From an uncultured Chloroflexia bacterium (GTDB lineage Bacteria; Chloroflexota; Anaerolineae; Anaerolineales; UBA4823): DNA of 64,000 nucleotides. The notes below the pieces were generated by a model. It searched no databases, was not told where the DNA came from, and saw only the letters and a program-made list of their open reading frames with translations. How positions within the stretch are numbered: the stretch's first letter is position 1; each line of letters begins with the position of its first letter. Made by a program: the position numbers and the translations under genes. The stretch lies in contig CAVSBZ010000002.1 in NCBI GenBank assembly GCA_963726315.1, positions 181,960-245,959 on the forward strand, written 5' to 3'. This document shows, in pieces, positions 9,214 through 34,572 of the stretch.

Positions 9214-9250
9214 CGTCAGGTCCCCTACCCGCAGTTGGGTAAACGTAAAC

Positions 9251-9278
9251 AGCCCTTCTCTCCATGGAGAGGGCTTTT
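9251..9278. terminator. Terminator-like hairpin
   Basis: agccct-t-ctctccatggagag-ggct followed by a T run. Confidence 0.45.
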
Positions 9279-10188: not shown

Positions 10189-10521
10189 CTATACCTGCGG
10201 TTCACCGGGTATCAACTCAAAAGAGGTGGTTTCGTAAATACTATTGCAAACTATACACTCATAATGAAGTCTAATTTTGAATATAGATACATAAGATTTA
10301 GTCATTTCCATCCGATGATTGCAGCCTGGTTTTTCACACCGAACCGGTAAACTCCAGAAATAAATATTGAGTATTGCTGTAATAATGAAAAACGCTAAGA
10401 GAGGTATTAGGTTTTTCCATAAGATTGCAATTAAAGTAACGATGAAAAAGGTAGGTATGCCAACAAGAAGACCAAAGTAATAATACATATTCAATAATAT
10501 TGCATGTGTTTTTGGATGCAT
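10189..10521 (-). CDS. Small membrane protein with a C-terminal zinc ribbon
   Basis: Two TM helices, then CEKPGC...CIVC. Confidence 0.6.
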   Translation of the reverse strand: MHPKTHAILLNMYYYFGLLVGIPTFFIVTLIAILWKNLIPLLAFFIITAILNIYFWSLPVRCEKPGCNHRMEMTKSYVSIFKIRLHYECIVCNSIYETTSFELIPGEPQV

Positions 10522-12166: not shown

Positions 12167-12530
12167 TGTGATCCTCTATTCGTTATAATATTGTTGTAAT
12201 GGTGAGTTTACTAGAAAATGCTTTACCACAAACCCACAAAGCATCATTATATAAAGTTTTTATATCTTCCTGTAATGGTGGAAAAAGTAGCTTCTTGCAG
12301 TTACTCCATTTTTTATTGAGTATCCTTTAATAAAAGTGCATGGATAATAAAAATCAAGACGATAATCTGTAATGAGAAAAAGATCATGAGTAGTGGTAAT
12401 TTGATAGTTATTCTTTTATCGACAGAAAGTATTTTAATACATATTATGTAAAAACAGTAAATGACTAAACAGATTGTCACAGATCGTCAGATTGAACCAA
12501 TTAGAATCCAATACACAAAGGAACCCAAGC

Positions 12531-13973: not shown

Positions 13974-14184
13974 ACTCCTAAAGCGGATTTTGCTGTGTCA
14001 GGAAAAAGAAGCAAAAAACTAGCGAATTATTATGCAAAATGCGATAATTCGAATTCAACAAAAATTCTCGAGAGTACTATGACCATAGAAAGGAGGTTCA
14101 GACTGTAGCCATAATCGATTAAAGGAGTAGCACAAATATTTTCATTGGTTAAGATAAACCAACCAGAGATAAAGGAGATACGAA

Positions 14185-15846: not shown

Positions 15847-15876
15847 TCACTCACTTTACTGTTAGCTGTGTTTTTT

Positions 15877-15903
15877 GGGGCTCAGGAGTATCCCTGAGCC
15901 CCA
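15877..15903 (+). terminator. Hairpin after the SBP gene (mRNA stabiliser or partial terminator)
   Basis: ggggctcagg-agtatc-cctgagcccc. Confidence 0.55.
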
Positions 15904-15968
15904 GATGGTATACTAAGTAATTAAAAGTTAAGTCGAGTTTAGAGCGCCGATAATACAATCTCCTTGCT

Positions 15969-16916
15969 ATGCGTAGATATTTCCTAAAGCACATTTTAAT
16001 GACTGTTGTGGTCTTGATGGTAGTCATTGTTATTCTGGCGCTGTTGGTGCATATTGTTCCAGGTGACCCGGCCAGGGTCTTTCTAGGTCAGCGAGCTACG
16101 CCGGATTTGATCGCCAGATTTCGAAGCTCCATGGACCTCGATCAACCTGCTTATATCCAGGTTGCACGTTTCTTGTGGAGAACCTTGCATGGCGATCTGG
16201 GCACCGATTTATGGACTGGCCGTTCCTTAACGGCCACAATCGGAGACGTGCTGCCTCATACAATCATCCTTGCCTGGACAAGTCTCACATTGGCGGTAAT
16301 CGTTGGAATCCCATTGGGTGTCTTCTCAGCAAGCCACCCCGATTCGTTGGCAGATCGTGCCACGGCGATCCTTTCGATATCATTCATAACCATCCCCAGC
16401 TATGTTGGCGGTTTGATTATGTTACTTGTTTTTGCTGTTCAGCTCAAAGTCTTGCCCGCCATGGGTGTAGGCGAGGCAGACAATCCCGGGGATTACATCC
16501 GTCACCTGATATTGCCTTCCATTGCTCTAGCGATCCCCTGGGTGGGCTACCTTGCTCGATTGGTGCGGACCAGCCTGCTTGAAGTGTTCAACGCTGATTA
16601 CATTCGATCAGCTCGAGCCGCGGGACTTAAGGAAAACCTGATACTTTACAAGTATGCACTTAAAAATGCCTTGATTCCTACTATCGCAGTGCTTGGAGTT
16701 GGTATTGGCAACCTTATGGGGGGGGCAGTTTTCGTAGAAGTCATTTTCAACCGACCGGGTATGGGAACTCTTATCTATAATGCGATCCAAATGCGCAATT
16801 ACCCTCTGGTACGCGCCAGTGTGCTCACAGTTGCCCTTCTTTTTATATTAGCTAACTTGATGACCGATATTGTCTATACCTACATCGACCCCCGCATCCA
16901 AATTGAAAGGAAATAA
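15969..16916 (+). CDS. Opp/Dpp ABC permease (OppB-like)
   Basis: PGDPA, GDLG, HLILP, DYIRSARAAGL, YIDPRI. Confidence 0.92.
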   Translation: MRRYFLKHILMTVVVLMVVIVILALLVHIVPGDPARVFLGQRATPDLIARFRSSMDLDQPAYIQVARFLWRTLHGDLGTDLWTGRSLTATIGDVLPHTIILAWTSLTLAVIVGIPLGVFSASHPDSLADRATAILSISFITIPSYVGGLIMLLVFAVQLKVLPAMGVGEADNPGDYIRHLILPSIALAIPWVGYLARLVRTSLLEVFNADYIRSARAAGLKENLILYKYALKNALIPTIAVLGVGIGNLMGGAVFVEVIFNRPGMGTLIYNAIQMRNYPLVRASVLTVALLFILANLMTDIVYTYIDPRIQIERK

Positions 16917-16929
16917 GCTTCCCTTACAC

Positions 16930-17820
16930 ATGGAATCCTCTCTCACTCGAAAGAGGCGCATTGATAATATCCTAAATCGTATACCGGTTCTCGGGGATGT
17001 GCTGAGACGTCCAATGGGGGTGCTTGGTTTTACGATTGTTTTAAGCTTTGCCTTGGTGGTAATCTTTGCCCCAATCATCGCGCCCTATCCTCCCGATGCT
17101 TTGGATATTCCTCACAAGTTGGAAGGACCTTCGTCCACTTACCTGTTGGGTACCGATCACCTCGGACGAGATCTATTATCACGGTTAATCTATGGCTCGC
17201 GGATTGCCCTAGGTACAGCGCTTTCCGCAGTGGGGATTGCTCTCACCCTGGGGTTAATCTTGGGTTTGATCTCAGGTTATGGGGGTGGCACTATCGATAA
17301 TATTATCCTTGTCATCCTTAATTCGGTCCAAGCTTTTCCAGCGGTTATCCTTGCCTTGGCGATGTTGGCTTTACTCGGACCTTCTTTACTCAACGTAATT
17401 CTTGTCATCGGTGTTACTTGGGCACCCGGGTACGCCCGAGTTGTACGGGCGCAAGTATTATCAGTTAAGGAGAACACTTACATAGAGGCAGAACGTTCTA
17501 TAGGTGCCAGTCAAAAACGTATTGTACTTCTTCATATCCTCCCAAACATACTAGCACCGTTGGTAATCTTAGTGGCGATGGACATCCCCGTAGTGATAGC
17601 CTTTGAAGCCGGGTTATCCTTCCTGGGATTGGGTGCACCCCCACCCACTCCATCTTGGGGCGCAATTCTTTCCGAAGGTTTTCGTTTCATCCGTAACTCA
17701 CCCTGGCCAATCACCTGGGCAGCATTAACGTTGATGCTAACAACCTTAGGTTTTACCCTGTTTGGAGAGACCCTGCGAGACGTACTGGACCCCCGGTTTT
17801 CAGGATTATGGAGAGCATGA
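16930..17820 (+). CDS. Opp/Dpp ABC permease (OppC-like)
   Basis: LGTDHLGRD, YIEAERSIGA, HILPN, PPTPSWG, GETLRDVLDP. Confidence 0.92.
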   Translation: MESSLTRKRRIDNILNRIPVLGDVLRRPMGVLGFTIVLSFALVVIFAPIIAPYPPDALDIPHKLEGPSSTYLLGTDHLGRDLLSRLIYGSRIALGTALSAVGIALTLGLILGLISGYGGGTIDNIILVILNSVQAFPAVILALAMLALLGPSLLNVILVIGVTWAPGYARVVRAQVLSVKENTYIEAERSIGASQKRIVLLHILPNILAPLVILVAMDIPVVIAFEAGLSFLGLGAPPPTPSWGAILSEGFRFIRNSPWPITWAALTLMLTTLGFTLFGETLRDVLDPRFSGLWRA

Positions 17821-19904
17821 TGGAATCTATTCTCCGTGTCGAAGATCTCCATATCAGTTATCAGACCCGTTATGGAAATCTTCCAGCAATTCGAAATGTG
17901 AGTTTTGAAGTAAAAGAAAAGGAGATAGTTGGGATTGTTGGAGAATCAGGCTGCGGAAAAAGCACCGTAGCGGCATCGGTTCTGCGTTTGTTACCCCCTA
18001 ATGGCCGGATCACCGGCGGACATATCTGGTACAAAGGAAAAGACTTGACCGATGTAACTGAAGAACAAATGCGTGGTTTTCGTGGATTAGAGAGCTCGAT
18101 GATTTTCCAGGATCCGATGACCAGTTTAAATCCAGTCTTTTCGATCGAGTCCCAAATGGTAGATGCTTTAGCGGCTCATAATAAGCAATTAAGTGGTATG
18201 GAGGTTCGTCAAAAAGCCATTCAAATGCTTGAACGGGTCGGGATCCCGGACGCTCCTGAGCGCATAAAATGCTATCCCCATGAATATTCCGGGGGCATGC
18301 GCCAACGTGTCATGATTGCTATTGCGCTTCTTGCTAATCCATCATTTATGGTAGCCGACGAACCTACATCGGCGTTGGATGTCACCTTGGAGGCGCAGAT
18401 CTTGGATCTAATCCGCGGTCTGCGCGAGGAATTTGGTACGGGGATTCTATATATCTCACATGATCTTGGGGTCATGGCTCAATTGTGTGATCGGATCATT
18501 ATCATGTACGCCGGAAACATTGTGGAGAGTGGTGATGTATATGAAATTTTTGACAACCCCAAACACCCTTATACACAAGCTCTCTTGAATTCACATCCCA
18601 CGCGTAAATCAAATCGCACCCACCTGGCTACTATTCCTGGACAAGTACCTAATTTGAGAGAACTACCACCGGGCTGCAAATTCGCACCACGTTGCCAGAT
18701 GGCTAGATCGATCTGTGTTAGTACAGACCCTCTCTTCGTACAAACCGGAGCGAGTCAAGTCTTATGCCATATCTACGATACCCAGCACTCGCAACATTGG
18801 AATGGATTAACAACAAACGATCTATTTACGGTATCTGAGAATGAATTGCTGCAGACGAGAATAGGTCATCAGGTCCCTCAACATGCTGAAGGACAATTCA
18901 TCTTAAAAATCCGTGGGTTAAAAGTGCATTTCCAAGATCGGGCAGGTTTTTTGTCTAAAAAAAATGAGCAGAAACGAGGCGTCTTGCGCGCGGTTGATGG
19001 TATTGACCTTGAAATCCGGAGAGGAGAGACACTGGGGTTGGTCGGTGAGTCGGGATCTGGTAAGACTACCCTGGGTCGAACCATCCTGCGTTTGGAGAAC
19101 TCAACTTCTGGACAGACGATTTTGCTTGGTGAAGATATCAGTCACCTGTCAGAAGCCAAGGTACGGCCTCTTCGGGCTCGAATGCAGATGATATTTCAAG
19201 ACCCATGCAGTAGCTTGAGCCCACGTATGAAAGTTTCTGCGATTCTCTCAGAACCTTTTCGCATCCATAAAATCCCATTTAATTCCAGGGACAAAGTAGA
19301 GGAGCTCTTGAATATGGTGGGGCTTTCTCCCGAGCAGGCTGATAAGTACCCTCATGAATTATCAGGTGGACAAGCTCGCCGAGTGGGGATAGCTCGGGCT
19401 CTAGCTTTAAATCCGGAATTCCTGGTGGCAGATGAACCGACTGCGGGCTTGGATGTTTCGGTAGCAGCCAGTATACTAAACTTGTTAAAAGACTTGCGTG
19501 AGCAACTCAACCTGACATATTTAATCATCACTCACAATCTGAATGTAATCAGCTTCATTGCTGATCGGGTTGGGGTCATGTATTTGGGTAAACTGGTTGA
19601 ACTTGGAGCCACAGACGATATCTTCGATCATCCAAAGCATCCTTATACTCAGGCTTTAATTTCAGCTATTTCTGTGCCTGATCTCAGATTACGTAAGCTT
19701 CAGAGTCAACGCATCATTCTTAAGGGGGAGATTCCTAGTCCCAGAAACCCTCCTTCTGGTTGCCATTTCCACCCTCGCTGTCGGTATGCTGAAGAAAAAT
19801 GTTCCCGCGAGGCTCCAGTTTTTGAGTTGAAGAATGGAAGTGATCAATGGGTGGCTTGCCATTTTCCGGAGAAGGTTGAGCAACACCGGGTAGTTACATT
19901 ATAA
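17808..19904 (+). CDS. Fused OppD-OppF double ABC ATPase
   Basis: Two Walker A motifs (GESGCGKS, GESGSGKT), two signature motifs, two Cys-rich HPYT...C-terminal domains. Confidence 0.92.
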   Translation: MESMMESILRVEDLHISYQTRYGNLPAIRNVSFEVKEKEIVGIVGESGCGKSTVAASVLRLLPPNGRITGGHIWYKGKDLTDVTEEQMRGFRGLESSMIFQDPMTSLNPVFSIESQMVDALAAHNKQLSGMEVRQKAIQMLERVGIPDAPERIKCYPHEYSGGMRQRVMIAIALLANPSFMVADEPTSALDVTLEAQILDLIRGLREEFGTGILYISHDLGVMAQLCDRIIIMYAGNIVESGDVYEIFDNPKHPYTQALLNSHPTRKSNRTHLATIPGQVPNLRELPPGCKFAPRCQMARSICVSTDPLFVQTGASQVLCHIYDTQHSQHWNGLTTNDLFTVSENELLQTRIGHQVPQHAEGQFILKIRGLKVHFQDRAGFLSKKNEQKRGVLRAVDGIDLEIRRGETLGLVGESGSGKTTLGRTILRLENSTSGQTILLGEDISHLSEAKVRPLRARMQMIFQDPCSSLSPRMKVSAILSEPFRIHKIPFNSRDKVEELLNMVGLSPEQADKYPHELSGGQARRVGIARALALNPEFLVADEPTAGLDVSVAASILNLLKDLREQLNLTYLIITHNLNVISFIADRVGVMYLGKLVELGATDDIFDHPKHPYTQALISAISVPDLRLRKLQSQRIILKGEIPSPRNPPSGCHFHPRCRYAEEKCSREAPVFELKNGSDQWVACHFPEKVEQHRVVTL

Positions 19905-19978
19905 AATTAGCGCAATGATCGATTTCACCTGGTTTAAGAACCAGTTATTCGCCTTATCAAAATAATTAGGAGTGAATT

Positions 19979-20614
19979 ATGGATAACATACTTGATCGAA
20001 TCTCAAATGCAGTGGTTGATGGGCAATTGGATCAAATTACCTCCTTGACGAATGCCGCGTTAGCTTCTGGTCTCACGGCAAAGGATGTCTTGGATAAAGG
20101 CTTAATGCCTGGTATGGACATCATTGGTGTAGGGTTCAAGCGAGGAGATAAATTCATACCTGAAGTTTTGCTGGCGGCAACTACAATGCAGGTCGCGCTA
20201 GATATCCTTAAACCCCTCCTTATTCAGGCAGGAGAGAAGATGGCAGGAAAAGTCGTCATCGGGACAGTCAAAGGCGATGTGCACGATATCGGAAAAAAGT
20301 TAGTCGGCATGATGCTCGAAGGAGCCGGTTTCGAGGTGGTTGACATTGGTAAAGATGTGCCAATAGATAAATTCGTGGACGCCGTGAGAGAAGAGCAGCC
20401 AGACCTGATAGCCATGTCTGCCTTATTGACAACCACGATGGTATCAATGAGCCAAACGATCGCAGCTTTGAAGGAAGCCGGCCTTAGAGAAAAAGTTAAG
20501 ATCATGATTGGTGGTGCACCTGTGACAGCGGATTATGCTATACAGATCGGCGCAGATGGTTATGCTGCGAATGCACCGGAAGCTGTCGATTTAGCTATGA
20601 GGTTAGCTGACTGA
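19979..20614 (+). CDS. Cobalamin-binding corrinoid methyl-acceptor protein (MttC/MtbC-like)
   Basis: GTVKGDVHDIGK, SALLTTT, IGGAP, IGADGY. Confidence 0.92.
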   Translation: MDNILDRISNAVVDGQLDQITSLTNAALASGLTAKDVLDKGLMPGMDIIGVGFKRGDKFIPEVLLAATTMQVALDILKPLLIQAGEKMAGKVVIGTVKGDVHDIGKKLVGMMLEGAGFEVVDIGKDVPIDKFVDAVREEQPDLIAMSALLTTTMVSMSQTIAALKEAGLREKVKIMIGGAPVTADYAIQIGADGYAANAPEAVDLAMRLAD

Positions 20615-20690
20615 AGTTGTGTTATTAGCCTGCCGATCAAAAACCTTACCGGCAGAGGATGAAAAACCAAATTTACTCAGAGTTTCCAAT

Positions 20691-21395
20691 TCACCTTATT
20701 ACCAAACTCAGGATGTATACGATCAATGGTGCGATTACTAGTGCTGGGAGAAAGTTCCCAACCCAAATCTTCTTGATTTCTAATAGACTACTGATGCCGA
20801 CACCCATCAAAAGTATTCCACCTGTAGCTGTCAGCTCATTCATCATCACGACACTGATGATGGCATCCAGCTTTCCAGCCAGCAGGCTAATACTTCCCTG
20901 ATAGGCAAGTACTGGCAGAGATGAAAATGCTACTCCTATTCCAAGTGTCGATGCAAAGGCTATTGATATAAAGCCATCAAGAACTGATTTAATAGAAAGT
21001 GTCAGAAAGTCTCCCCGCAGCCCGTCACTAATTGAACCAAGAATCGCCATAGGTCCAATACAAAAAAGCATAGATGCACTGAGAAAGCCATGTACAAAAC
21101 GGCTGGATTTCCCCTCCGAACTACCCTTTACTCGTTTTTCCAGCCAAATTCCTAGCACTTGCATTTTATCTTCAATTTTCCACCACTCACCCAACAATGC
21201 GCCAACAATTAATGCACCCAACACAACGAGAGGTTTTTCGGTTTTCAAAAACATCTGGAAACCTATGGCCGTTGTAAATAAGCCCATACCCGCAATCACG
21301 GTATTTTTAATATTCTCTGAGAGACGCCTCCCAAAGAAAATTCCAAGTAAACCACCAACAATTATGGCGGCGACATTGATAAAGGTTCCGGTCAT
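20691..21395 (-). CDS. DUF554-family membrane protein
   Basis: GTFINVAAIIVG, FCIGPMAILGS, KSVLDG, NFLPAL. Confidence 0.85.
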   Translation of the reverse strand: MTGTFINVAAIIVGGLLGIFFGRRLSENIKNTVIAGMGLFTTAIGFQMFLKTEKPLVVLGALIVGALLGEWWKIEDKMQVLGIWLEKRVKGSSEGKSSRFVHGFLSASMLFCIGPMAILGSISDGLRGDFLTLSIKSVLDGFISIAFASTLGIGVAFSSLPVLAYQGSISLLAGKLDAIISVVMMNELTATGGILLMGVGISSLLEIKKIWVGNFLPALVIAPLIVYILSLVIR

Positions 21396-21419
21396 TCCAG
21401 GTCACTAGTAGTCAGAGTA

Positions 21420-22889
21420 TCAGACTTCGGGTGGTAGAGCTGGAAGAGATTCCATACCAAATTTATTGGCTGCATGTAAAGTGACTTCGCGGAGTTCTTT
21501 ACGCAGTTCATCAGTTAGGTTATTCGGTTGGTATGTAGGTATTAGTTTTTCTACACGATCTCGCGCTCTCTCGAAAGTAGATTTCTCTCCACGGGCTTTC
21601 CAACCATCAAATGACGCTCGATCTATTACCTCTGAGGGCATGTACTGTTCCTCACGGAACCATTTACGAGTATGAGCTAAAGTCAAAAAATCTCCTTTAT
21701 GCCCGCTCTTCTGCATCAAATTGAGTGCAATCGGATCGTCACGCACAATGATCCCTTTCACAAAGCGTTTGACCATGCCGATCATTTCAGCATCGATGAC
21801 TAGTTTTTCATAGCTTAAACACAATTCAAGGTCCATCATCCCACAACCAGAAATGATATTTGCCCCAGAAAGAGCTGCGACAAAATTACTCCCCATTGAC
21901 TCAAGCCCGCATTGAGTATCGATAATTTTTGCATCACTCATACCCATATATGCATGTGTCGGTAGTCCCAAAGCTTTACCAATTTGTACATAGGCAGAAC
22001 TGATCATCCAGGTTTCGACAGCTCCCATGGGTGTAGATCCTTCCCGCATGTCGAATATTGCCGGTGAACCTCCCCAAACAATGGGAGCTCCGGCTCTCGC
22101 TAATTGGTGAATAACCACTCCACTCAAGGATTCAGCGGCATGTTGAACAACTGCTCCTGCAAGAGTCACCGGTGCAGTTGCTCCAGCAAGTGGCATAGAA
22201 ATTAGTTGCGCAGGGATCAAGAAATGAGCGCAATCAATAAGATTTTGGCACGTAAAATCACTCCATAACAAGGGCGGAGATGGGCAAACATCGAATACGG
22301 CTGTCGGTTTGTTTGCAAAGGCATCGTCGCCCCCAGCAACAAGCGAAAGCATTTCTTTCATTGTCCACCAGGTATCTTTTCGAAAAGCCCCAGTAATGAT
22401 TGGCTTCTTCATATAATTTAAAGCCAGATAGAGACGATAAAGATCACCAATTTCTGGAACAACATCTGAGCACACAAATGCTGTACTTTGAGCATCAATT
22501 TGAGGCAGGGTTTCTACAAGTTTGGTAAATTTAATATAATCGTCAGTTTTGGGTGAACGAGGGCGTTCGGTCTGGCTGTCGATGATCGTCAAACCACCTG
22601 ATCCTGGATCAAAGTGGATTTTATCGCCAAAGTAATGAACTGCGGCATTTCCATTCAGATCAAATAATGTAAAGTCTTTCGGAGCGGTTTGTAAAGCTTG
22701 TCGGATAATGTTTTCTGGAATATATGCCACCTGAGCTTTAAAATCCACTTTGGCATTTGCGTTGGCCAACAACTCTAATGCTTCTTGATTGTGAATACGT
22801 ATCCCTGGATTTTCCAAGATCGCAATCGCTTCAGAAATAATTTGCCTAACCAAATCATCGTCAAGCATTTGTAGCTTCGGAATTAACAT
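21420..22889 (-). CDS. Second MttB-family (non-pyrrolysine) methyltransferase
   Basis: PSPPL, AGATAPVTLAG, FDMREG, GMSDAK..D.Q.G.E, GANIISG. Confidence 0.9.
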   Translation of the reverse strand: MLIPKLQMLDDDLVRQIISEAIAILENPGIRIHNQEALELLANANAKVDFKAQVAYIPENIIRQALQTAPKDFTLFDLNGNAAVHYFGDKIHFDPGSGGLTIIDSQTERPRSPKTDDYIKFTKLVETLPQIDAQSTAFVCSDVVPEIGDLYRLYLALNYMKKPIITGAFRKDTWWTMKEMLSLVAGGDDAFANKPTAVFDVCPSPPLLWSDFTCQNLIDCAHFLIPAQLISMPLAGATAPVTLAGAVVQHAAESLSGVVIHQLARAGAPIVWGGSPAIFDMREGSTPMGAVETWMISSAYVQIGKALGLPTHAYMGMSDAKIIDTQCGLESMGSNFVAALSGANIISGCGMMDLELCLSYEKLVIDAEMIGMVKRFVKGIIVRDDPIALNLMQKSGHKGDFLTLAHTRKWFREEQYMPSEVIDRASFDGWKARGEKSTFERARDRVEKLIPTYQPNNLTDELRKELREVTLHAANKFGMESLPALPPEV

Positions 22890-22956
22890 AAAAGACTCCT
22901 ATGGAAACTATTTTTGGATATTGTGCTTATATTATCGTTGGATTAGATATTCTAAA

Positions 22957-23604
22957 TTATTGACCGAGTAATTGTTTTGCAACCTTGATCGCACCTATGG
23001 CATCTTCACTATAACCGTCTGCACCAATTTGATTGACCCATTCTTTAGTCACGGGTGCACCACCCACCATTACCTTTACCTTGGAGCGTATGCCAATATC
23101 CTCAAGTGCTTCTATGACATCTTTTTGATGTACCATTGTGGTTGTAAGTAATGCACTCATGGCAACAATATCGGCATTTACTTCTCGAACCTTATCCACC
23201 ACTTTCATCACTGGCACATCCACACCTAGATCGAAAACCTTGAAACCAGCTGAAGATAGCATTGTTCCTACTAATGTTTTTCCAATTTCGTGGATATCGC
23301 CTTCAATGGTACATAGAACTACCTTGCCCAACATCTTCCGCTCGGTACCAAGCCTGGCTAATTCTGGTTCCAACACAGCCACTGCTGCCTTCATTGCTTC
23401 TCCCGCCATGACAAGCTCAGGCAGATAAGCATCTCCATTAGCAAAGGCTTCACCGACTTTATTAACCCCAATTACGTAGCCTTGTGATATAGCTTCAAGA
23501 GGATCGATACCTTGGGCAATTGCCTGCTGTGCTAGCTCTAAAGCAATTTCACTATCTCCATCAATGATACTTTGCGCCATATCCTGAAATAATTGGTTTG
23601 TCAC
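22957..23604 (-). CDS. Second corrinoid protein
   Basis: EGDIHEIGK, SALLTTT, VGGAP. Confidence 0.92.
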   Translation of the reverse strand: MTNQLFQDMAQSIIDGDSEIALELAQQAIAQGIDPLEAISQGYVIGVNKVGEAFANGDAYLPELVMAGEAMKAAVAVLEPELARLGTERKMLGKVVLCTIEGDIHEIGKTLVGTMLSSAGFKVFDLGVDVPVMKVVDKVREVNADIVAMSALLTTTMVHQKDVIEALEDIGIRSKVKVMVGGAPVTKEWVNQIGADGYSEDAIGAIKVAKQLLGQ

Positions 23605-26086: not shown

Positions 26087-27669
26087 ATAACATTACCTTT
26101 GAGCGTTTTACGGATGGCAAACCAAATCTTCGTCGTTTCCACCAAGCACGGTGGGATGAACCAGTCATTTTTGAGCTAGGCCAGCCTGGTCAGCGAGGGA
26201 TTTTAGTACCCGAGGTAGATGAAGGAATTAAGTCTCAAGTGGGGAACCCACTGAAGGGGATACCAGATTCACTACTTCGTAAGACCCAGCCCCAATTACC
26301 TGAAATGTCACAGCCGGCCGTATTAAGACATTATGTCCATTTATCTCAAGAAACATTAGGAGTGGATTGCAATATTGATGTTGGGCAGGGCACCTGCACG
26401 ATGAAATATAGCCCGAAGATAAACGACCAGCTAGCCCGGATGGACGAACTAACAGAATTACACCCATTACAAGATGAGTCGACTGTACAAGGCATCCTCG
26501 AGGTCTTTTGGCGTTTTGAGCAAGTTTTGAAAGAAATTTCAGGGTTGGATAGGTTCACGCTACAGCCTGGCGCAGGTTCTGCTGCAATCTATACCAATGC
26601 GAGCATCATCCGTGCTTATCATGCTTCAAGGGGAGAGATAGACAAACGAGATGAAATCATAACAACGATTTTCTCGCACCCATCAGATGCTGCTTGTGCA
26701 AAGGTGGCAGGGTTTAAAGTGATCACTCTCTATCCTGATAAAGACGGTTATCCTGACATAGAGGCATTGCGTGCTGCCATATCTCAGAGGACCGCAGGTC
26801 TTTTAATAACTAACCCGGAAGATACCGGTATTTTTAATCCAAAAATCGCTGAATTCACCGAACTTGTCCACGCCGCAGGGGGATTGTGCTCCTATGACCA
26901 GGCAAATGCGAATGGTATCCTGGGTATAACACGTGCTCGTGAGGCAGGGTTTGATCTGTGTCATTTTAACCTACATAAAACCTTCTCAACCCCGCATGGA
27001 TGCGGGGGCCCCGCTGTTGGCGCAACAGGTGTTACAGAAAAATTGGTGCGATTCCTACCTGTCCCATTGATTGACTTTAATGGTCTGAGTTATTTACTAA
27101 ATTATGACCTGCCAGATAGCATTGGAAAAATCCGTCCATTCTATGGGGTAGCACCAGCGGTTTTAAAAGCCTATGCGTGGGTGATGTCACTGGGGGCTGA
27201 AGGACTGCGTGAGGTGGCAGAGGTAGCGGTATTAAACAATAATTACCTGCTTCATAAGATCCAGGCAATCCAAGGAGCAAGCGCTCCATATGCTACAGGG
27301 AAACATAGGATTGAGCAGGTAAGGTATTCTTGGGAAAAACTATACGAAGATACTGGTATCCATTCAGACGAACTGGGCATCCGCGCGGCTGATTTTGGGG
27401 TACATTATTGGACAAGCCACCACCCATACGTGGTACCGGAACCTTGCACGCTTGAACCCACAGAGTCATACTCGAAAGAAGAATTAGATGAATATGCCGC
27501 TGTTATTGAAAACGTCGCGAACGAAGCGTACACCCATCCAGATGTTGTGAAAACTGCTCCACATAACAGCACTGTCCATACAATTAACCACCATCCTCTT
27601 GACGACCCAAAGCAGTGGTGCATCACCTGGCGCTCTTATAAACAAAAAACTCAACAGGAAAACCGATAA
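26083..27669 (+). CDS. gcvPB: Glycine cleavage P-protein subunit 2 (divergent)
   Basis: CTMKYSPK, TNP..TG, DQAN.N, HFNLHKTFSTPHG (PLP Lys), EPTES. Confidence 0.88.
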   Translation: MNNITFERFTDGKPNLRRFHQARWDEPVIFELGQPGQRGILVPEVDEGIKSQVGNPLKGIPDSLLRKTQPQLPEMSQPAVLRHYVHLSQETLGVDCNIDVGQGTCTMKYSPKINDQLARMDELTELHPLQDESTVQGILEVFWRFEQVLKEISGLDRFTLQPGAGSAAIYTNASIIRAYHASRGEIDKRDEIITTIFSHPSDAACAKVAGFKVITLYPDKDGYPDIEALRAAISQRTAGLLITNPEDTGIFNPKIAEFTELVHAAGGLCSYDQANANGILGITRAREAGFDLCHFNLHKTFSTPHGCGGPAVGATGVTEKLVRFLPVPLIDFNGLSYLLNYDLPDSIGKIRPFYGVAPAVLKAYAWVMSLGAEGLREVAEVAVLNNNYLLHKIQAIQGASAPYATGKHRIEQVRYSWEKLYEDTGIHSDELGIRAADFGVHYWTSHHPYVVPEPCTLEPTESYSKEELDEYAAVIENVANEAYTHPDVVKTAPHNSTVHTINHHPLDDPKQWCITWRSYKQKTQQENR

Positions 27670-27675
27670 GAAAAT

Positions 27676-28791
27676 ATGAGACGTATTGGGCTGATCGTAA
27701 ATCCGGTTGCTGGGTTGGGTGGACGCGTTGGATTAAAAGGAAGTGATGGCTGGGACATACAGCTAAAAGCTCTTGAGCTTGGCGCTATTCCCCATGCAAA
27801 CGACAGAACGGTGGAGACATTACAACTTCTCCTACCCATGAAGGCTGATCTGGAAATCCTGACTTATCCTGGAAATATGGGTGAAATTGCTGTAAAAAAA
27901 GCAGGATTTGTACCTTGTGTATTGGGTCAAATTGTATTCGACCATACCACAGCAGAAGACACAAAGAGGGCTGTGAAAGAATTAATGAATAAGGATTTAG
28001 CGCTCCTAATGTTTACTGGAGGTGACGGAACAGCTCGAGATGTATATGCAGCTGGGGGATCGGAAATCCCCGCATTAGGTATTCCTGCAGGAGTGAAAAT
28101 CCATTCAGCAGTATACGCTATTCATCCTCGAGCTGCTGGAGAACTGGCGATAGCTTACTTGCGTGAGGAGGCGATATTAAACCTTGTTGAAGTAATGGAT
28201 GTTGATGAAGAAGAATTCCGACAAGGACGTGTATCTCCGAAGCTTTATGGATTTCTCAGGGTGCCATATTTACAGAGATTTGTGCAAGGAGCCAAGGCAG
28301 CGAGTCCCAAAATATTGTCTTCTGCATTAAAAGGTATTGCCGAAGACTTGTCTGAGCAGATGTTTCCTGGAACGATGTATATTTTCGGTCCCGGTTCGAC
28401 CACACAAGCAATATGTAAATATCTCGGTATGGAAAAAAGCCTACTAGGAGTGGATGTCTGCTTGGACGGCAGAATCATAGCTATGGATGCTAGCGAATCC
28501 CTTCTGCTAAGCCTTCTGGCAAGTGACTGTCGAGCCGAAATCATTCTCACACCGATTGGTGGACAGGGTTGTCTCTTCGGACGTGGAAACCAACAGATCA
28601 GCCCTGCGATAATCCATAAGGTAGGTAAGACACACCTCCACATTGTTAGCACACCCGAGAAGCTATATGCGCTGAAAGGGCATCCATTGTGGGTTGATAC
28701 TGGAGACCAGACATTAGATAAAATGCTTTGCGGCTATTTTCCAGTTATTACGGGATATAAAGAAAGTATTATGTACAAGGTCACTACATAA
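27676..28791 (+). CDS. ATP-NAD/AcoX-like kinase family protein
   Basis: IGLIVNPVAGLGG.VGLKGSDG, GGDGTARD, GIPAGVKIHS, GRGNQQ. Confidence 0.85.
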   Translation: MRRIGLIVNPVAGLGGRVGLKGSDGWDIQLKALELGAIPHANDRTVETLQLLLPMKADLEILTYPGNMGEIAVKKAGFVPCVLGQIVFDHTTAEDTKRAVKELMNKDLALLMFTGGDGTARDVYAAGGSEIPALGIPAGVKIHSAVYAIHPRAAGELAIAYLREEAILNLVEVMDVDEEEFRQGRVSPKLYGFLRVPYLQRFVQGAKAASPKILSSALKGIAEDLSEQMFPGTMYIFGPGSTTQAICKYLGMEKSLLGVDVCLDGRIIAMDASESLLLSLLASDCRAEIILTPIGGQGCLFGRGNQQISPAIIHKVGKTHLHIVSTPEKLYALKGHPLWVDTGDQTLDKMLCGYFPVITGYKESIMYKVTT

Positions 28792-29052
28792 GGAGAGGCA
28801 ATAAATATATATAAAATTTATCAACAACAGTAATTTGAATATTTAGTACCCAAAATGACCTTGGAAAAGCCCGTATGGTGCAAATATTCCGTCTATTCAG
28901 AATGCACATAAATATTTCATTAACCCAAAAGTAATCCTAAGAAATTCTATGGATGAGTGAAACAGCCAGGACAGGTTTCTTGGTCAGGGGAACGAAAGAG
29001 AAAAGTGAAGACGATGTTTTTCAAGGACGTCATTTGCATCAAATCACCATTT

Positions 29053-29279
29053 GGACAGGTTTGCGGATCGCCTTTCCTTGCTTCTTACCGATGCATATTG
29101 GAGAACACTGCGGGACCAATTGGGTACAGATATGCTGAAGCAATATGCAACGAGCGTAGCGAGTTGTATGGTGATTTTGGAACAAAATAGACGTAATAGA
29201 AAGTATTTTCCCTCTTTTCCCCTATCTGCACATCTATAACAATGAAGAGTTCGAGGGTTCGCATCCCTCCAGGTCCACC
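29053..29279 (+). mobile_element. Second element-end relic: motif plus tRNA-like T-arm/acceptor
   Basis: 29/32 match to 6496-6527; gagggttcgcatccctccaggtccacc at 29253-29279. Confidence 0.4.
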
Positions 29280-29788
29280 TAACTACCCTAAGAAATGGTC
29301 TCGCCTGAGTCGATAGCCCCCCAACCATGGTAAACCAGTAGCTCCTGACTGAGGTAGATCTATAGCAATTTATCACTAGTGTTATCACCGTTTGGTTATA
29401 ACCAATAATAAGAATTGCTTAAATTGGGTAACGTTGCTTTTAAGCTTGCGTGTGTAGCTCATAAGCGCTTCTTTGACTGGCAGGTCTTTAGAGACTTATC
29501 CTTCCACAGCTTGCTTGTATTATCTATCGAATTTACACTTGTGAGTTGAATCTATCAATCTAAATACAGAACAGATGGGGACAGACGACCAGGATTTCAT
29601 TGACATGCCTGACAATCGCCCAGTTGGACCTGAGCGATATCATACGCAGACACTCTGAACCTTAGCAACTGTTACATCCGGATTGATAGCCGGCAGCAAC
29701 GTCAAAATTTTACGCAAGGCGGGGAGGAGCCTGTCTCCGGAGCGGAGCGAGGAGACGGGATTCGAACTTTAGTCCCCTTGAGGGATCT

Positions 29789-30485
29789 AACACCCTTCGC
29801 GGGTGCCCGCGGCGGACAAGTTGGTGTACTTCTGGCGGGGAGGGCTGGGTTCGAAATACACACCCCCTGTGGGTGCCCGCGGCGGACAAGTTGGGGTACT
29901 TCTGGCGGGGAGGGCGGGGTTCGAAATACACACCCCCTGTGGGTGCCCGCGGCGGACAAGTTGGGGTACTTCTGGCGGGGAGGGCGGGATTCGAAATACA
30001 CACCCCCTGTGGGTGCCCGCGGCGGACAAGTTGGTGTACTTCTGGCGGGGAGGGCTGGGTTCGAAATACACACCCCCTGTGGGTGCCCGCGGCAGACAAG
30101 TTGGTGTACTTCTGGCGGGGAGGGCTGGGTTCGAAATACACACCCCCTGTGGGTGCCCGCGGCGGACAAGTTGGTGTACATCTGGCGGGGAGGGCTGGGT
30201 TCGAAATACACACCCCCTGTGGGTGCCCGCGGCGGACAAGTTGGTGTACTTCTGGCGGGGAGGGCTGGGTTCGAAATACACACCCCCTGTGGGTGCCCGC
30301 GGCGGACAAGTTGGTGTACTTCTGGCGGGGAGGGCTGGGTTCGAAATACACACCCCCTGTGGGTGCCCGCGGCGGACAAGTTGGTGTACATCTGGCGGGG
30401 AGGGCTGGGTTCGAAATGCACACCCTTCACGGGTGCCCGCGGCGGACAAGTTGGTGTACTTCTGGCGGGGAGGGCGGGATTCGAA
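29789..30485 (-). repeat. Tandem array of 70-bp units derived from the tRNA-Ser(GCT) 3' end (9 full units plus partial ends)
   Basis: Unit ttggtgtacttctggcggggagggctgggttcgaaatacacaccccctgtgggtgcccgcggcggacaag at 29821, 29891 ... 30381, merging into the tRNA at 30463. Confidence 0.97.
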
Positions 30486-30556
30486 CCCGCGGCGGAGGTT
30501 TTAGCCCCCGCACTCACTTAGCAGGCGAGCCCAATCGGCCACTCTGGCACCTCCCC
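30463..30556 (-). tRNA. tRNA-Ser(GCT)
   Basis: GGGGAGG/CCTCCCC acceptor, anticodon arm ctcgc-ctGCTaa-gtgag, long variable arm, GTTCGAATC, encoded CCA. Confidence 0.96.
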
Positions 30557-30559
30557 GTA

Positions 30560-30646
30560 GGCGGAGGGAGAGGGATTCGAACCCACGATGGATTTCTCCA
30601 TACCTGTTTTCAAGACAGGCGCCTTAAGCCACTCGGCCATCCCTCC
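30560..30646 (-). tRNA. tRNA-Ser(TGA)
   Basis: GGAGGGA/TCCCTCC acceptor, cctgt-ctTGAaa-acagg, long variable arm, GTTCGAATC; CCA not fully encoded. Confidence 0.95.
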
Positions 30647-30828
30647 AGATAGAGGGAAAATCCCTCTCAAGCGGACGGAATTCTACCATATCCACGGGCT
30701 GGATGCAACATTTTGCTTCCTCCAGTGGTTTACATCCTTCCTAAAGCCCACTTCCCATTCAGCTATTTTCTAATTTTGATCGCCGCCTCCAATCGAATTG
30801 CGGGATTAACTCGTGCTATACTTGGCGA

Positions 30829-32349
30829 ATGTCCCGTTTCGCCAAGTCAACCCTGATCGTGGCGATTTTCCTCGGGTTGGAAAAAGTCCTCGGTTTTGCA
30901 CGACAGATCCTCATTGCTCGGCAGTTTGGTCTCTCATCCCAACTGGACGCGTTCAACGCGGCCAACAATCTGCCAGACTTGCTGTTTGCCCTCATCTCAG
31001 GTGGGGCGCTCGGTATCGCTTTGATCCCCGTGCTCACCGAAACCCTGCAAAAGGAAGACCGCCGGGCTGCCTGGCACCTGTTCTCCCGCATTGCCAATCT
31101 GGTCTTTCTCGTTACCGCCGGCATCGCCGTAGTGTTGGCAATCTTTGCAGGTCCACTTGTCCACAATGTGGTCACCCCAGGTTTCTCCCTTGAGCAGCAG
31201 CGCCTCGTGACCAGCATCATGCGCCTTGACCTGATCGCCACGATATTATTCTCGCTCAGCGGGTTGGTCATCGCCGGCTTGCAGTCTAATCAGCACTTCC
31301 TGCTACCGGCTATGGCGCCCAGCATGTATGACCTGGGGATGCTGTTTGGGGTCATCATTCTCGCCCCTGAAACCGGCTACCAAATTGGTCCGCTCACCCT
31401 GCCGGCCTTCGGGATGGGGATATATGGCCTCGTCTACGGCGGCATCCTTGGCGCACTCATGTTCCTGTTGATCCAGCTGCCGGGTCTGATCATCTACAAG
31501 TTCCACTGGATCCCCTCCATTGACCTGCATAACCCGCGTGTGCGCCAGGTTTTGTCTCTGATGGGACCGCGTGTACTCACCGTCTTCTTCATCCAATTAG
31601 TCTTTGTTGCCTCCGATAATATCGCTTCCTGGCTGGCTCCGGGTGCAGTCTCTGCCCTGGTCTATGGCTGGTTGTTCATGCAGGTGCCAGAAACCCTGGT
31701 AGGTACAGCCATTGGTACGGTGCTGTTACCTACCATTTCGGAACAGGTTGCGCGCGAACAAATGGATAGATTTCGCCAATCTTTGAACCATGCCATGCGC
31801 ATCATCCTTGCCCTTACCATCCCTGCGGCTGTGTTGGTTGCAGTGGGTGTCCGTCCGGTGGTGAGTCTGCTGGGTTTTGATGCTGCCGGAACTGAAGCGG
31901 TCGTCTGGGTCACCCGTGGCTACCTGGTTGGTCTGATGGGCTTTTCGCTGATCGAGGTGGCTGCACGCGCCTTCTATGCTCAGCAAAATGCGTTGATTCC
32001 CCTGGGTGCCAATATTATCACCACGGTGACATTTGTTATTTTGGCAGTCGTGTTGGGGTATAAATTGGGTGCCCCTGGAATTGCCCTCGCCAATGGTCTG
32101 GCTTATACGGGTGAGGCGATATTGTTGTGGTATTTGCTCAACCGGCGTTTTCCCGGGGTGGTGGATGTGCGCTCGACCCTTGTCCGCGTGATCCCCGTAG
32201 CTCTTGCATGTGGCTTATTGGTATTTGGATTATTGCAGCTTCCCGTTGAAATTTCTGGGTTGGTTCTGGGAGTATTTGCCCTGGGTGTGGGTGGACTAGT
32301 TATGCTTCCGTTCATCATGCCTGAGCTCAAATTGCTGGTAAAAATGTAG
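30829..32349 (+). CDS. murJ: Lipid II flippase MurJ (MviN)
   Basis: KVLGFARQILIA..FG...LDAFNAA..LP, GGAL..ALIP, Q.PE..G.AIGTVLLP, RAFYA; multi-TM. Confidence 0.88.
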   Translation: MSRFAKSTLIVAIFLGLEKVLGFARQILIARQFGLSSQLDAFNAANNLPDLLFALISGGALGIALIPVLTETLQKEDRRAAWHLFSRIANLVFLVTAGIAVVLAIFAGPLVHNVVTPGFSLEQQRLVTSIMRLDLIATILFSLSGLVIAGLQSNQHFLLPAMAPSMYDLGMLFGVIILAPETGYQIGPLTLPAFGMGIYGLVYGGILGALMFLLIQLPGLIIYKFHWIPSIDLHNPRVRQVLSLMGPRVLTVFFIQLVFVASDNIASWLAPGAVSALVYGWLFMQVPETLVGTAIGTVLLPTISEQVAREQMDRFRQSLNHAMRIILALTIPAAVLVAVGVRPVVSLLGFDAAGTEAVVWVTRGYLVGLMGFSLIEVAARAFYAQQNALIPLGANIITTVTFVILAVVLGYKLGAPGIALANGLAYTGEAILLWYLLNRRFPGVVDVRSTLVRVIPVALACGLLVFGLLQLPVEISGLVLGVFALGVGGLVMLPFIMPELKLLVKM

Positions 32350-32361
32350 AGGAGAAAAATA

Positions 32362-34572
32362 ATGTTTAAAAATATCTATAAATTATTGGCTGTAATATCG
32401 GTTCTGTCCTTCCTTTTGGCTGCTGCGGTGATGCCTGCCAGCGCCGCCCCCTGGAGAGACAAAGTTGACCCCTGGGTCCTGCGCACCGCCGCTCATGGTG
32501 ACACTGAGTTCCTGGTTTTCTTAACCAACCAGGCAAATCTCAGCCAGGCAAATGCGTTATCGACCAAGCTGGAAAAGGGTACATATGTCTATCAGACCCT
32601 TACCTCCTTCGCCGCCCGCACTCAATCCCCGCTCATCACTGAGCTGGAAAGGTTGGGTGTGGATTACCGACCGTATTGGGTCGCCAATATGATCTGGGTG
32701 CGTGCCGGGTTGAGCACTGTCCAGCTGCTGGCACAAAGACCAGATGTGGCGCACTTGTATGCCAATCCTCAGGTAAAGCTGGATGAACCCACCATCGATG
32801 CCTCCTCCAGTCCTGTCCCACAAGGGGTTGAGTGGAACATTACCAAGGTTAAGGCTCCTGAAGTATGGGCAATGGGTTTTACCGGTCAAGATGTGGTTAT
32901 CGGCGGGCAGGATACCGGTTATCAATGGGACCACCCTGCCCTGATCAACCAGTATCGCGGTTGGAATGGCATCAATGCTGACCACGACTATAACTGGCAC
33001 GATGCCATCCATGAAAATGCGTACTACAACCCCTGCGGGTTCGATTCCCCCTTCCCTTGTGATGATTATGGTCATGGCACTCACACCATGGGTACCATGG
33101 TGGGCGATGATGGTGGCGCCAACCAGATTGGTATGGCACCAGGCGCGCGTTGGATCGGTTGCCGGAACATGGATAATGGCGTAGGGTCACCGTCAACTTA
33201 CGCTGAATGCTACCAATGGTTTGTCGCTCCCACCCGTGTGGACGGCTCTGAACCTCGCCCAGATCTTGCCCCCGACGTGATCAATAACTCCTGGGGCTGC
33301 CCACCCAGTGAAGGCTGTAACCCCGATTCGCTGTTGGTAGTGGTTCAAAACTTGGTCAATGCGGGGATTGTCACTGCCCACTCAGCAGGGAATTCTGGTA
33401 GTGGATGTAGTTCTGTCTCTGATCCCGCAGCAATATATGAAGAATCATTTACCGTTGGGGCGACCGACTCGTCAGATACAATCGCTGGTTTCAGCAGCCG
33501 CGGTCCCGTCACGGTCGATGGTAGCAACAGACCCAAGCCCGATATCTCCGCTCCTGGTGTGAATGTTCGTTCTTCGGTTCCTGGTGGGGGCTATGAAGGC
33601 GGGTGGAGTGGTACCAGCATGGCAGGTCCGCATGTTGCCGGTTTGGTCGCCTTGCTCATATCCGCTCATCCTGACCTGGATGGGCAGGTGGACCAAATTG
33701 AATCAATCATCGAGCAGTCTGCCTTCCACATTTCCTGGTATGGCTGTTCCAGCGATGGTGTGCCCAATAACGCTTATGGCTGGGGTCGCATCGACGCGCT
33801 GGCTGCCGTTGGGACTGTTCACCAGCTCGAGTTGACAAAGCTTGCCTCCGCTAACGCTGTCTTGCCAGGTGACCCCATCACCTATACGCTTACCGTTACC
33901 CACTCAAATGGGATCGGACCAACCACTAACGTGGTGCTGACCGACACCCTCCCGGCAGGCACTAGCTTTATATCAGCCACTCAACCTTACTCCCTGGATG
34001 GAGACGTTGTCCGTTGGGATTTCCCCAGCCTGGATACTCCGGCTGCGGTTAGTGTGGATCTGACCGTAGGGGTAAATATCACCTCCACGGGCACCATCGT
34101 CAACGCTGATTATGCTGTCAAAAGTGATCAGGTGGAACCGGTGCTTGGTGAGCCGGTCACAACTCAGCTGGATAAGCTTGATTTCTTACAGCTTCAGAAG
34201 ACTGCCTCGGCTTCAATGGTCATTCCCGGCGAGCTCATCACGTATACCATCGCTGTTACGAATAGTCATGCGTTGATTTCTGCCTCCAACGTGGTGCTAA
34301 CCGATAATCTGCCGGTTGGATCGACGTTTGTATCTGCTTCAGTTCCATATATCCTTGATGGAGATATCATCCGCTGGGAATTCCCCATTCTCGATCCTTC
34401 GAGCACCCTTACGGTTGTGCTGGTGGTCAGGGTTGATCTAACCACTTTGGGTATCCTCACCAATGCGGATTATGCCGTAGTTAGCGATCAGGCAGCCCTC
34501 GTTCAAGGTGCACCCGTCAACACGCGGGTTGGCAGCGTGTTCTTCCTGCCCATCGCCATTAAGGCACCATAA
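32362..34572 (+). CDS. Secreted S8 subtilisin-like protease with two DUF11-like domains
   Basis: Signal peptide; DTG, HGTHTMG, GTSMAGPHVAG triad; LxKxAS...PG..ITYT repeats; C-terminal FFLPIAIK. Confidence 0.92.
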   Translation: MFKNIYKLLAVISVLSFLLAAAVMPASAAPWRDKVDPWVLRTAAHGDTEFLVFLTNQANLSQANALSTKLEKGTYVYQTLTSFAARTQSPLITELERLGVDYRPYWVANMIWVRAGLSTVQLLAQRPDVAHLYANPQVKLDEPTIDASSSPVPQGVEWNITKVKAPEVWAMGFTGQDVVIGGQDTGYQWDHPALINQYRGWNGINADHDYNWHDAIHENAYYNPCGFDSPFPCDDYGHGTHTMGTMVGDDGGANQIGMAPGARWIGCRNMDNGVGSPSTYAECYQWFVAPTRVDGSEPRPDLAPDVINNSWGCPPSEGCNPDSLLVVVQNLVNAGIVTAHSAGNSGSGCSSVSDPAAIYEESFTVGATDSSDTIAGFSSRGPVTVDGSNRPKPDISAPGVNVRSSVPGGGYEGGWSGTSMAGPHVAGLVALLISAHPDLDGQVDQIESIIEQSAFHISWYGCSSDGVPNNAYGWGRIDALAAVGTVHQLELTKLASANAVLPGDPITYTLTVTHSNGIGPTTNVVLTDTLPAGTSFISATQPYSLDGDVVRWDFPSLDTPAAVSVDLTVGVNITSTGTIVNADYAVKSDQVEPVLGEPVTTQLDKLDFLQLQKTASASMVIPGELITYTIAVTNSHALISASNVVLTDNLPVGSTFVSASVPYILDGDIIRWEFPILDPSSTLTVVLVVRVDLTTLGILTNADYAVVSDQAALVQGAPVNTRVGSVFFLPIAIKAP

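Follow-up and report, generated by a model that had tools for sequence, protein, structure and literature searches.

What is a tandem array of tRNA 3' ends doing behind an intact tRNA gene, and why is each copy split by a small hairpin? The question is raised by a 64,000-nt stretch of DNA from an uncultured Chloroflexia bacterium (the window), in which a run of 70-bp units that carry the tail of tRNA-Ser(GCU) lies directly behind that gene. The window is on contig C2 of the source genome (G000; 4.5 Mb in 7 contigs). As a sequence feature, the array is real, and it is one of a family of hairpin-split tRNA-tail units that recurs in, and is specific to, this lineage. Islands, prophages, and integrative elements land at tRNA genes more often than anywhere else. 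On balance, we lean towards explaining the array as tRNA-linked repeats that operate at the DNA level at integration hot spots and that were amplified by unequal recombination between the copies of the tail.

The array behind tRNA-Ser(GCU)

Two tRNA genes were called in the window, both on the minus strand (by ARAGORN, and Rfam agrees). The first of the pair is tRNA-Ser(UGA) (30560-30646; Rfam RF00005, 59.3 bits), whose CCA is not encoded. The second, tRNA-Ser(GCU) (30463-30556; 52 bits), folds into a normal cloverleaf and ends in ...CCCGCCCTCCCCGCCA. The last 23 nt of tRNA-Ser(GCU) are the tail that is repeated. On the same strand, the array begins at the first base past the CCA. Tandem Repeats Finder (TRF) reports a single array at 29801-30485, with a period of 70, 9.8 copies, 96% matches, 0 indels, and a score of 1258.

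From TRF, sequence reading, and motif location, the array has nine complete 70-bp units (29833-30462, minus strand). Each unit begins with a 16-nt linker and continues with TCCGCCGCGGG (in tRNA-Ser(GCU), the 11 nt before the T-loop), a 15-nt hairpin (CACCC-N5-GGGTG), 5 nt, and the tail TTCGAA(C/T)CC(A/C)GCCCTCCCCGCCA. A motif search located ten linkers, GA(A/T)GTAC(A/C)CCAACTTG, which start at 30462, 30392, and so on to 29832, spaced by exactly 70 nt. It also located ten hairpins, from 30435-30421 to 29805-29791. The eight inner units share the hairpin loop ACAGG; the first unit has GTGAA instead, and the last has GCGAA. The tail closes nine units; it comes in three variants and has 0-2 mismatches to tRNA-Ser(GCU) over 20 nt. 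One unit has TCTGCC in place of TCCGCC. Successive copies of the tail are separated by 47 nt, and there are no cargo genes. All of this agrees with an initial annotation that was made from the DNA letters, which had described the parts of the unit, the nine extra tails, and the loop variants. It had also described one unit as identical to the last 23 nt of the tRNA, and this is unit 7 (tail at 29995-29973; 23/23 identical).

The tenth unit lacks a tail of its own. Its linker and hairpin are fused to an older, longer terminal module (29718-29832, minus strand, from the sequence and the motif locations). The terminal module adds a second hairpin (29787-29772), the T-loop-like sequence TTCGAAT CCCGT, a third hairpin that lies in the acceptor strand (29756-29733), and the tail CTCCTCCCCGCC (29729-29718). 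Homologous terminal modules are present in two related genomes, G002 and G010, and the third hairpin has changed on both arms (GTCTCC/GGAGAC vs. GTACCC/GGGTAC).

The order of the variants hints at how the array expanded. Divergence is greatest in the first and last units, and the linker variant GATG appears at units 2 and 5. This spacing, every third unit, suggests a higher-order repeat of three units. Together with the tail of unit 7, which is identical to the tRNA, this is the pattern expected if unequal exchange moved one or three units at a time and if the tRNA gene served as a donor for conversion.

Hairpin-split tails at other tRNAs and in related genomes

The hairpin-split tail unit is no one-off. 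We found it at seven tRNA species in the genus, plus a variant at tRNA-Val(CAC). Besides tRNA-Ser(GCU), units with the cognate tail follow, or once followed, Ser(UGA), Ser(CGA), Arg(UCG), Lys(UUU), Met(CAU), and Gly(CCC). G000 itself has a tRNA-Ser(CGA) tail module (C5:28034), tRNA-Arg(UCG) tail modules at five sites, and tRNA-Lys(UUU) arrays with units of ~92 nt (C1:400134-400700 and 421600-421850). An array in G007 carries the tail of its own tRNA-Ser(UGA). tRNA-Met(CAU) has units in G014 (3 x 91 nt), G009 (5 x 146 nt), G012, and G007, and tRNA-Gly(CCC) has two units in a Chloroflexota record from a metagenome-assembled genome (L091). Behind tRNA-Val(CAC) are five 69-bp units with a different hairpin, GTCCCC-GCA-GGGGGGAT, ahead of the whole T-arm. 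So the survey that the initial annotation had proposed, for inserts of the CACCC-N5-GGGTG type with cognate tails elsewhere, was positive both at other tRNAs and in other genomes. Its placement of the hairpin exactly at the junction of the T-stem and the T-loop holds at tRNA-Ser(GCU), but not everywhere: the hairpin is inside the T-stem in the tRNA-Arg modules and upstream of the entire T-arm in the tRNA-Val units.

How widespread is the unit? Within G000, there are 121 hairpin sites (vs. 49 in the control), and the hairpin is not a dispersed genome-wide repeat. A T-loop comes after 22 of 112 hairpin matches in G000, but after just 3 of 42 matches for the reversed control. The hairpin is nearly confined to copies of tRNA tails in this genome. 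Across 41 related genomes, the pattern of hairpin plus T-loop has 57 matches in 17 genomes, while the reversed pattern has 0. These genomes include 13 of the 21 congeners and none of the 3 sister genera; the 16 other families gave 3 single hits. In an even sample across the class, 12 of 300 other genomes match, vs. 10 with the reversed control, which is the background level. (There is one exception in this sample, a genome from another family with two units that are 89 nt apart.) A wider scan of contigs gave at least 119 loci. About 113 of these resemble chance matches or real tRNAs, and among the matches listed, modules occur only in Chloroflexota records. In viral contigs, the tail had 0 matches and the hairpin pattern had one unrelated match. 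We found no description of hairpin-split tRNA tails in the literature, and the unit appears not to have been described previously.

At tRNA-Ser(GCU), the number of units ranges from 0 to 10 between species. Four congeners (G012, G004, G010, and G001) have no units: the tRNA ends in GCC and is followed directly by the flank TTGCGTAAAA... At the other extreme, G016 has ~9 units of 70 bp with the stem TACCC/GGGTA. There are 4 units in G009, 3 units in G015 (with a different and longer palindrome within the T-loop), and one or two modules with longer linkers in G002, G003, G013, and G019. In G016 and G009, the linkers are near-identical, but both arms of the stem differ. One metagenome contig (L183) has a linker that is close to that of G000, the stem TACCC/GGGTA, and units behind a displaced tail. 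Arrays of 3-10 units have separate origins in several species. (G014:C5 has a copy of tRNA-Ser(GCU), at L027 4567-4660, from whose T-stem and acceptor strand 5 nt are missing; ARAGORN does not call this copy. It is followed by three units with the hairpin TCCCC-ATAAA-GGGGA. It could be a collapsed assembly or a dead copy.)

We then compared the hairpins themselves. The stem comes in three complementary forms: CACCC/GGGTG, TACCC/GGGTA, and TCCCC/GGGGA. A script collected 42 distinct segments, of which we aligned 30, after dropping 4 segments (judged to be chance matches or another hairpin) and 8 near-identical array units. Across the 30 modules, 98.7% of the stem cells are paired, and the loop is free to vary. 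The outer pair of the stem is C-G in 15 modules and U-A in 15, and the second pair (15-27) is A-U in 19 modules, C-G in 10, and unpaired in 1. Because our search pattern prescribed the three inner pairs and half of the outer pair, the second pair, which was left free, is the only unbiased test. Around the insert, pairing of the T-stem is 76%, with its two inner pairs broken in 13 and 16 of the 30 modules. A further candidate for a compensatory change, in the last tRNA-Met unit of G012 (TCTCC/GAGGA), was rejected because counting gave a wobble and a mismatch. We also rejected an origin of the hairpin from a variable arm: none of the 13 long tRNAs of G000 (12 of class II and tRNA-SeC) has such an arm. 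What looks like a hairpin near tRNA-Ser(GGA) is the variable arm of that tRNA itself, within a clean attR.

Island boundaries and displaced modules

Comparing congeners suggests what the unit is. In one alignment (A1), an island boundary in G004 differs from the matching one in G012 by exactly one additional 70-nt module. The inserted module is bounded by a 15-nt direct repeat, CCCGCCCTCCCCGCC, which comprises the 3' strand of the T-stem, the 3' strand of the acceptor stem, and the discriminator base. The module at tRNA-Ser(CGA) (C5:28034) has the same layout. Given this alignment and this layout, we view the unit as an insertion between repeats of the tail. The 70-nt insertion is precise, modules are inherited at a given locus across species, and their number varies from 0 to 10.

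The sequence beyond the array (TTGCGTAAAATTTTGAC..., 29611-29717, minus strand) adjoins the tRNA directly in the species without an array, and it is repeated at island boundaries. In G012:C154, this flank of ~110 nt recurs three more times within 32 kb (L026 ~3630, 7769, and 15099). Ahead of each copy come a right arm with two GGGAC-N4-GTCCC palindromes, then a terminator, CTGCGGGTAGGGGA, and finally the tail. Because it is repeated after the right arms of islands, the flank is probably the left arm of a family of elements without a recognized integrase. The 4-7 kb between the flank copies in G012 contain AbiEii, pRiA4-ORF3-like, DUF6036, and SWIM genes, and no integrase was found in these stretches. 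(At 23.7-35 kb of G012:C154 (L026), three tandem cassettes with an AbiEii toxin, a DUF6036 nucleotidyltransferase, and pRiA4-ORF3-like and SWIM genes lie between identical boundaries. This looks like stacked defense-type cargo.)

The window also contains an older boundary of this locus (9066-9376, minus strand), which has been displaced and now lies 21 kb from the tRNA. It has two GGGAC-N4-GTCCC-like palindromes, a terminator hairpin, and a degenerate tRNA-Ser(GCU) tail that ends in CCCCGCCA. The degenerate tail ends in CCA and is followed by a 47-nt linker and then one module hairpin, TACCC-GTGAA-GGGGG. A sister boundary lies at G000:C2:160217. Since the boundaries of flank and right arm recur, the tRNA-Ser(GCU) locus reads as a stack of islands.

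At other tRNAs, islands with an integrase can be compared with the hairpin units. The tRNA-Lys(UUU) island has an integrase beside the tRNA (C1:365345-366457), and the island ends in a clean 43-nt attR copy of the 3' half of the tRNA, with no hairpin. The hairpin units are just beyond this copy. At tRNA-Met in G012 and G007, the order is the same, with a clean junction and then the hairpin units. Similarly, the attP-like junction at C6:82741 is free of the hairpin, while displaced halves of tRNA-Arg with the same right arm carry at least one. The order of island right arm, tail, and hairpin modules was also seen in 5 of 6 metagenome contigs. Integrase-borne islands that enter the tRNA push the modules outward together with the old 3' half, and some displaced modules are now tens of kb from any tRNA promoter. 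Because real integrations leave clean junctions, we view the hairpin units as older residents of the 3' flank, that is, as passengers and not as scars of an integrase.

We also looked for the enzymes. G000 has 12 matches to the integrase family PF00589. Within the window, there were none among the scanned open reading frames (ORFs; 8 + 28 + 4 of the 50 ORFs of at least 90 aa). An integrase family of 393 aa sits ~120 nt behind tRNA genes and is present in 21 of 24 genomes of the host family and in 0 of 16 other families. With this protein as the query, no integrase was found at 6 metagenome loci. We rejected this family as the source of the units, as it targets other tRNAs and leaves clean junctions.

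Several other observations concern these boundaries or their surroundings. Two displaced halves of tRNA-Arg (G000:C5:1868420-1868560 and C7:778340-778390) carry strings of extra small hairpins with 4-bp stems and 7-nt loops (e.g., GTCG-AAGACCA-CGAC), inserted in the 3' strand of the acceptor stem. On the plus strand of the window, at 29257-29278, there is a 22-nt tail-like copy of tRNA-Ala(CGC) with 2 mismatches, preceded by ...AATGAAGAG. Similar copies are at C5:10143, C5:25591, C5:54630, C3:15305, and C3:53039, and several of these are close to other island boundaries. The region 12474-23604 of the window encodes two MttB-family methyltransferases, each with a corrinoid-binding protein, as well as a peptide/opine-type ABC transporter and a GntR regulator. 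It is probably a gene cluster for the demethylation of quaternary amines within an old island. Elsewhere in G000, thirteen tRNA genes are packed into 3.4 kb (C5:707695-711094). Several of them have unusual T-loops (e.g., GGATCAATACC and GGCTCAAAACC), and some are duplicates of tRNAs that G000 also encodes at other sites. This cluster looks like an acquired tRNA array.

Mechanism, alternatives, and known systems

We propose the following mechanism. The tail module is a partial copy of the neighboring tRNA, from ~10 nt before the T-loop through the 3' end, and a conserved hairpin with a stem of 5 bp and a loop of 5 nt interrupts its T-arm. It is bounded by direct repeats of the last 15-23 nt of the tRNA, and it resides at tRNAs that serve as integration sites. 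The ten units would have arisen by unequal exchange or slippage between copies of the tail, whether homologous or integrase-mediated. Exchange would have homogenized the inner units and left the edge units diverged, while gene conversion would keep the tRNA-like flanks of the hairpin similar to the resident tRNA. The units would function at the DNA level, as additional or disabled att-like sites, rather than as tRNA-like RNAs. As for the hairpin, our guess is that it might be a structure-dependent site on single-stranded or extruded DNA, which splits the T-arm palindrome of the copy.

This mechanism keeps parts of two suggestions in the initial annotation. One was that the array is a set of attB-like decoy or landing sites: tail-bounded units do lie at proven target tRNAs, but the loci gave no instance of integration into a unit. 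The other was that the array is the footprint of a minimal amplifying element: the clean 70-nt insertion and its direct repeats fit this, but no integrase was seen to act on the units.

Several points weigh against our explanation. No recombinase is tied to the modules, and PF00589 is absent from contig C2. The 393-aa integrase family adjoins a tRNA in 15 of 20 fetched loci, but never tRNA-Ser(GCU) (its neighbors are Arg(UCG) 4, Lys(CUU) 1, Val(UAC) 4, His 2, and Ala(CGC) 4). The number of units in the array rests on one assembly. The aligned modules are related to each other, so the paired changes in the stem are not independent observations, and these changes could be explained by template switching within a palindrome, without selection. 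A hairpin that is kept through changes on both arms is not expected of a passive relic, and this argues for a function, possibly at the RNA level. Finally, the range 28800-31000 showed no terminator-like site, and thus none that would separate tRNA-Ser(GCU) from the array, which is therefore probably transcribed.

Such read-through is what one would expect if the units were functional modules of the 3' trailer of a tRNA operon, with the hairpin as an RNA element (for processing, pausing, or protection) or as a source of small RNAs. The pairing of the stem despite changes on both arms would fit with this, as would an A/T-rich tract after the stem. There is also a precedent, in that tRNA-linked repeats (TLRs) behind rRNA operons of E. 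coli were reported to be transcribed and processed into small RNAs (PMC8144298). A contig from an RNA library of a relative joins the tRNA to the flank, which is weak evidence because DNA carry-over is possible. But the folding energies are no better than those of shuffled sequences (z = +0.77 for one unit, -0.32 for two units, and -0.42 for the terminal module). The inner pairs of the T-stem are unpaired in many of the modules, as described above, and the units have no 5' acceptor strand. At tRNA-Met, the tRNA's own strong intrinsic terminator precedes the hairpin and is repeated in every unit, and other modules have been displaced far from tRNA promoters. A search with Rfam (E <= 1) over 27000-33000 and 8500-10300 found the two tRNAs and otherwise only chance-level matches. 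We consider a role as a trailer RNA to be unlikely, but not negligible. A narrower proposal of the initial annotation, that the array is a source of 70-nt tRNA-like RNAs that act as decoys, finds no support in the same evidence: with no 5' acceptor strand, shuffle-level folding, broken T-stems, and tRNA-Met units behind a terminator, such RNAs are unlikely. Neither ARAGORN nor Rfam called any array unit as a tRNA (the two real tRNAs are the only ones in the window), and no cloverleaf or acceptor/T-arm minihelix was recognized in the units. Two related ideas were rejected. The hairpin is not itself a terminator, given the lack of any terminator-like site in 28800-31000 and given that the tRNA-Met units have a proper terminator besides the hairpin. 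And the encoded CCA does not indicate a retro-copy of a mature tRNA: ~14 of the 61 tRNAs of G000 encode CCA, and the Lys, Val, and Met units lack it.

Alternatively, each unit could be an active, gene-less mini integrative element, with an attP-like site, an integrase acting in trans, and a hairpin in the recombination site as in the attC sites of integrons. The precise insertion of one unit with a 15-nt direct repeat of the tail would be explained, as would the near-identity of the linkers in G000 and in L183 (where the units are behind a displaced tail), the repeated origin of arrays at seven or more tRNAs, and the near-restriction of the hairpin to the context of a T-loop (22/112 vs. 3/42). 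But no integrase is linked to the units, no bigger element that shares these ends and carries genes was found, circularization would need more than 70 bp, and the tail has no matches in viral contigs. Also, the tRNA-Met modules look orthologous in four species, which suggests inheritance in place over frequent insertion. We regard this alternative as doubtful. We give a similarly small chance to a bolder idea, that the units are the working sites of an undescribed recombination system of Chloroflexota, which would depend on structure folded in single-stranded or extruded DNA, would be analogous to attC but on the T-arm of tRNAs, would multiply without genes, and would mark the stacking of islands. 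It is far less probable that a hairpin-specific nuclease or transposase (an Ssn-type GIY-YIG nuclease, a free-standing homing nuclease, or a RAYT) targets the hairpins or leaves them as by-products. G000 does encode three small GIY-YIG ORFs of 105-107 aa, but none of the three has a module-type hairpin within 1.5 kb, and none is near a module. (There is a 16-nt match to a TTCCC-type hairpin near C1:336783.) The Y1_Tnp profile for RAYT gave just one weak, broken match. Furthermore, the 121 hairpin sites (vs. 49 in the control) are few compared to Ssn motifs, which number in the hundreds (PMC11893778). Least probable of all is that the array of ten units is an assembly artifact of one or two real units. 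Among sequencing runs, 20 contain part of the stretch, each with no more than a third of the sampled words. Short-read metagenome contigs from four runs cover both tRNAs, but none spans the array, and one contig from a wetland metagenome joins the end of the tRNA and part of unit 1 to the terminal module. As short-read contigs collapse such repeats, this contig does not bear on the question in either direction. The differences between the units are ordered (the linker variants, the one TCTG, and the three tail variants), and arrays of 3-9 units are present in independent assemblies of other species.

If the units are indeed DNA-level repeats at integration hot spots, how do they compare to known systems? 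In E. coli, TLRs lie directly behind tRNA or rRNA genes and share their orientation. A locus has one to several of these repeats, and each repeat ends with the last ~18-19 nt of the upstream gene (Egan and Landy 1978 and Rudd 1999, as summarized in PMC8144298, which states that their function is largely unknown). Similarly, our array is directly downstream of a tRNA, on the same strand, and its tails copy the 3' end of the gene. Unlike the TLRs of E. coli, the units also copy ~10 nt upstream of the T-loop, hold a conserved hairpin in the T-arm, are shorter (70-146 nt), and form arrays of up to 10. (This comparison is of layout, not of sequence.) Tandem islands and cis-mobilizable elements can be bounded by direct repeats of a tRNA or tmRNA 3' end. 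This is so for the islands at ssrA (tmRNA) in Dehalococcoides (PMC3146451, where accretion in elements of the ICESt1 type is also cited); tycheposons also form stacks of islands bounded by tRNA ends (bioRxiv 10.1101/2020.12.28.424599). In these systems, insertion is in or near the T-loop, newcomers push older islands outward, and many islands lack an integrase. Dehalococcoides belongs to the same phylum, and the picture at tRNA-Ser(GCU), Lys, Arg, and Met is equal to that at ssrA, with copies of the tail downstream. In contrast to the tandem islands, our units are gene-less, have just 47 nt between the repeats, and are tandemly amplified. They also have a hairpin, which neither article mentions (the word occurs 0 times in PMC3146451).

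As for att sites in general, the insertion is bounded by repeats of the tRNA 3' end and four congeners have no units at the tRNA, but we found no adjoining or acting integrase and no cargo between the repeats. Integron attC sites are imperfect palindromes of 55-140 nt with a GTTRRRY core and the layout R''/L''/L'/R', and they are acted on by the integrase IntI. Like integrons, our arrays consist of units separated by small structured sites in which the stem is kept rather than the sequence. Unlike attC, the hairpin is 15 nt and lacks the R''/L''/L'/R' layout, GTTCGAA does not fit the GTTRRRY core, and there is no cassette. A scan of contig C2 with PF00589 found no integrase nearby; IntI was not searched for separately. 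Like REP/RAYT and Ssn/SRM repeats, the hairpin is short, GC-rich, and repeated in the genome. Unlike them, it is confined to copies of tRNA tails, and no linked nuclease or transposase gene was found; the Ssn/SRM hairpins, as described in PMC11893778, have hundreds of dispersed copies and flank the nuclease gene. Overall, the units are closest in kind to tRNA-linked repeats and to the gene-less, att-bounded remnants at integration hot spots.

To our knowledge, tRNA-linked repeats have been without an explanation since 1978. This genus offers a natural series of them, with seven tRNA species and the tRNA-Val(CAC) variant, from 0 to 10 copies, and readable boundaries and stem changes. If the hairpin is a signal for recombination or processing, then it would explain how such repeats form, and it might explain how integration hot spots are kept usable or shut. 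If the hairpin is not a signal, the units would still be markers for the order in which islands accreted in uncultured Chloroflexota.

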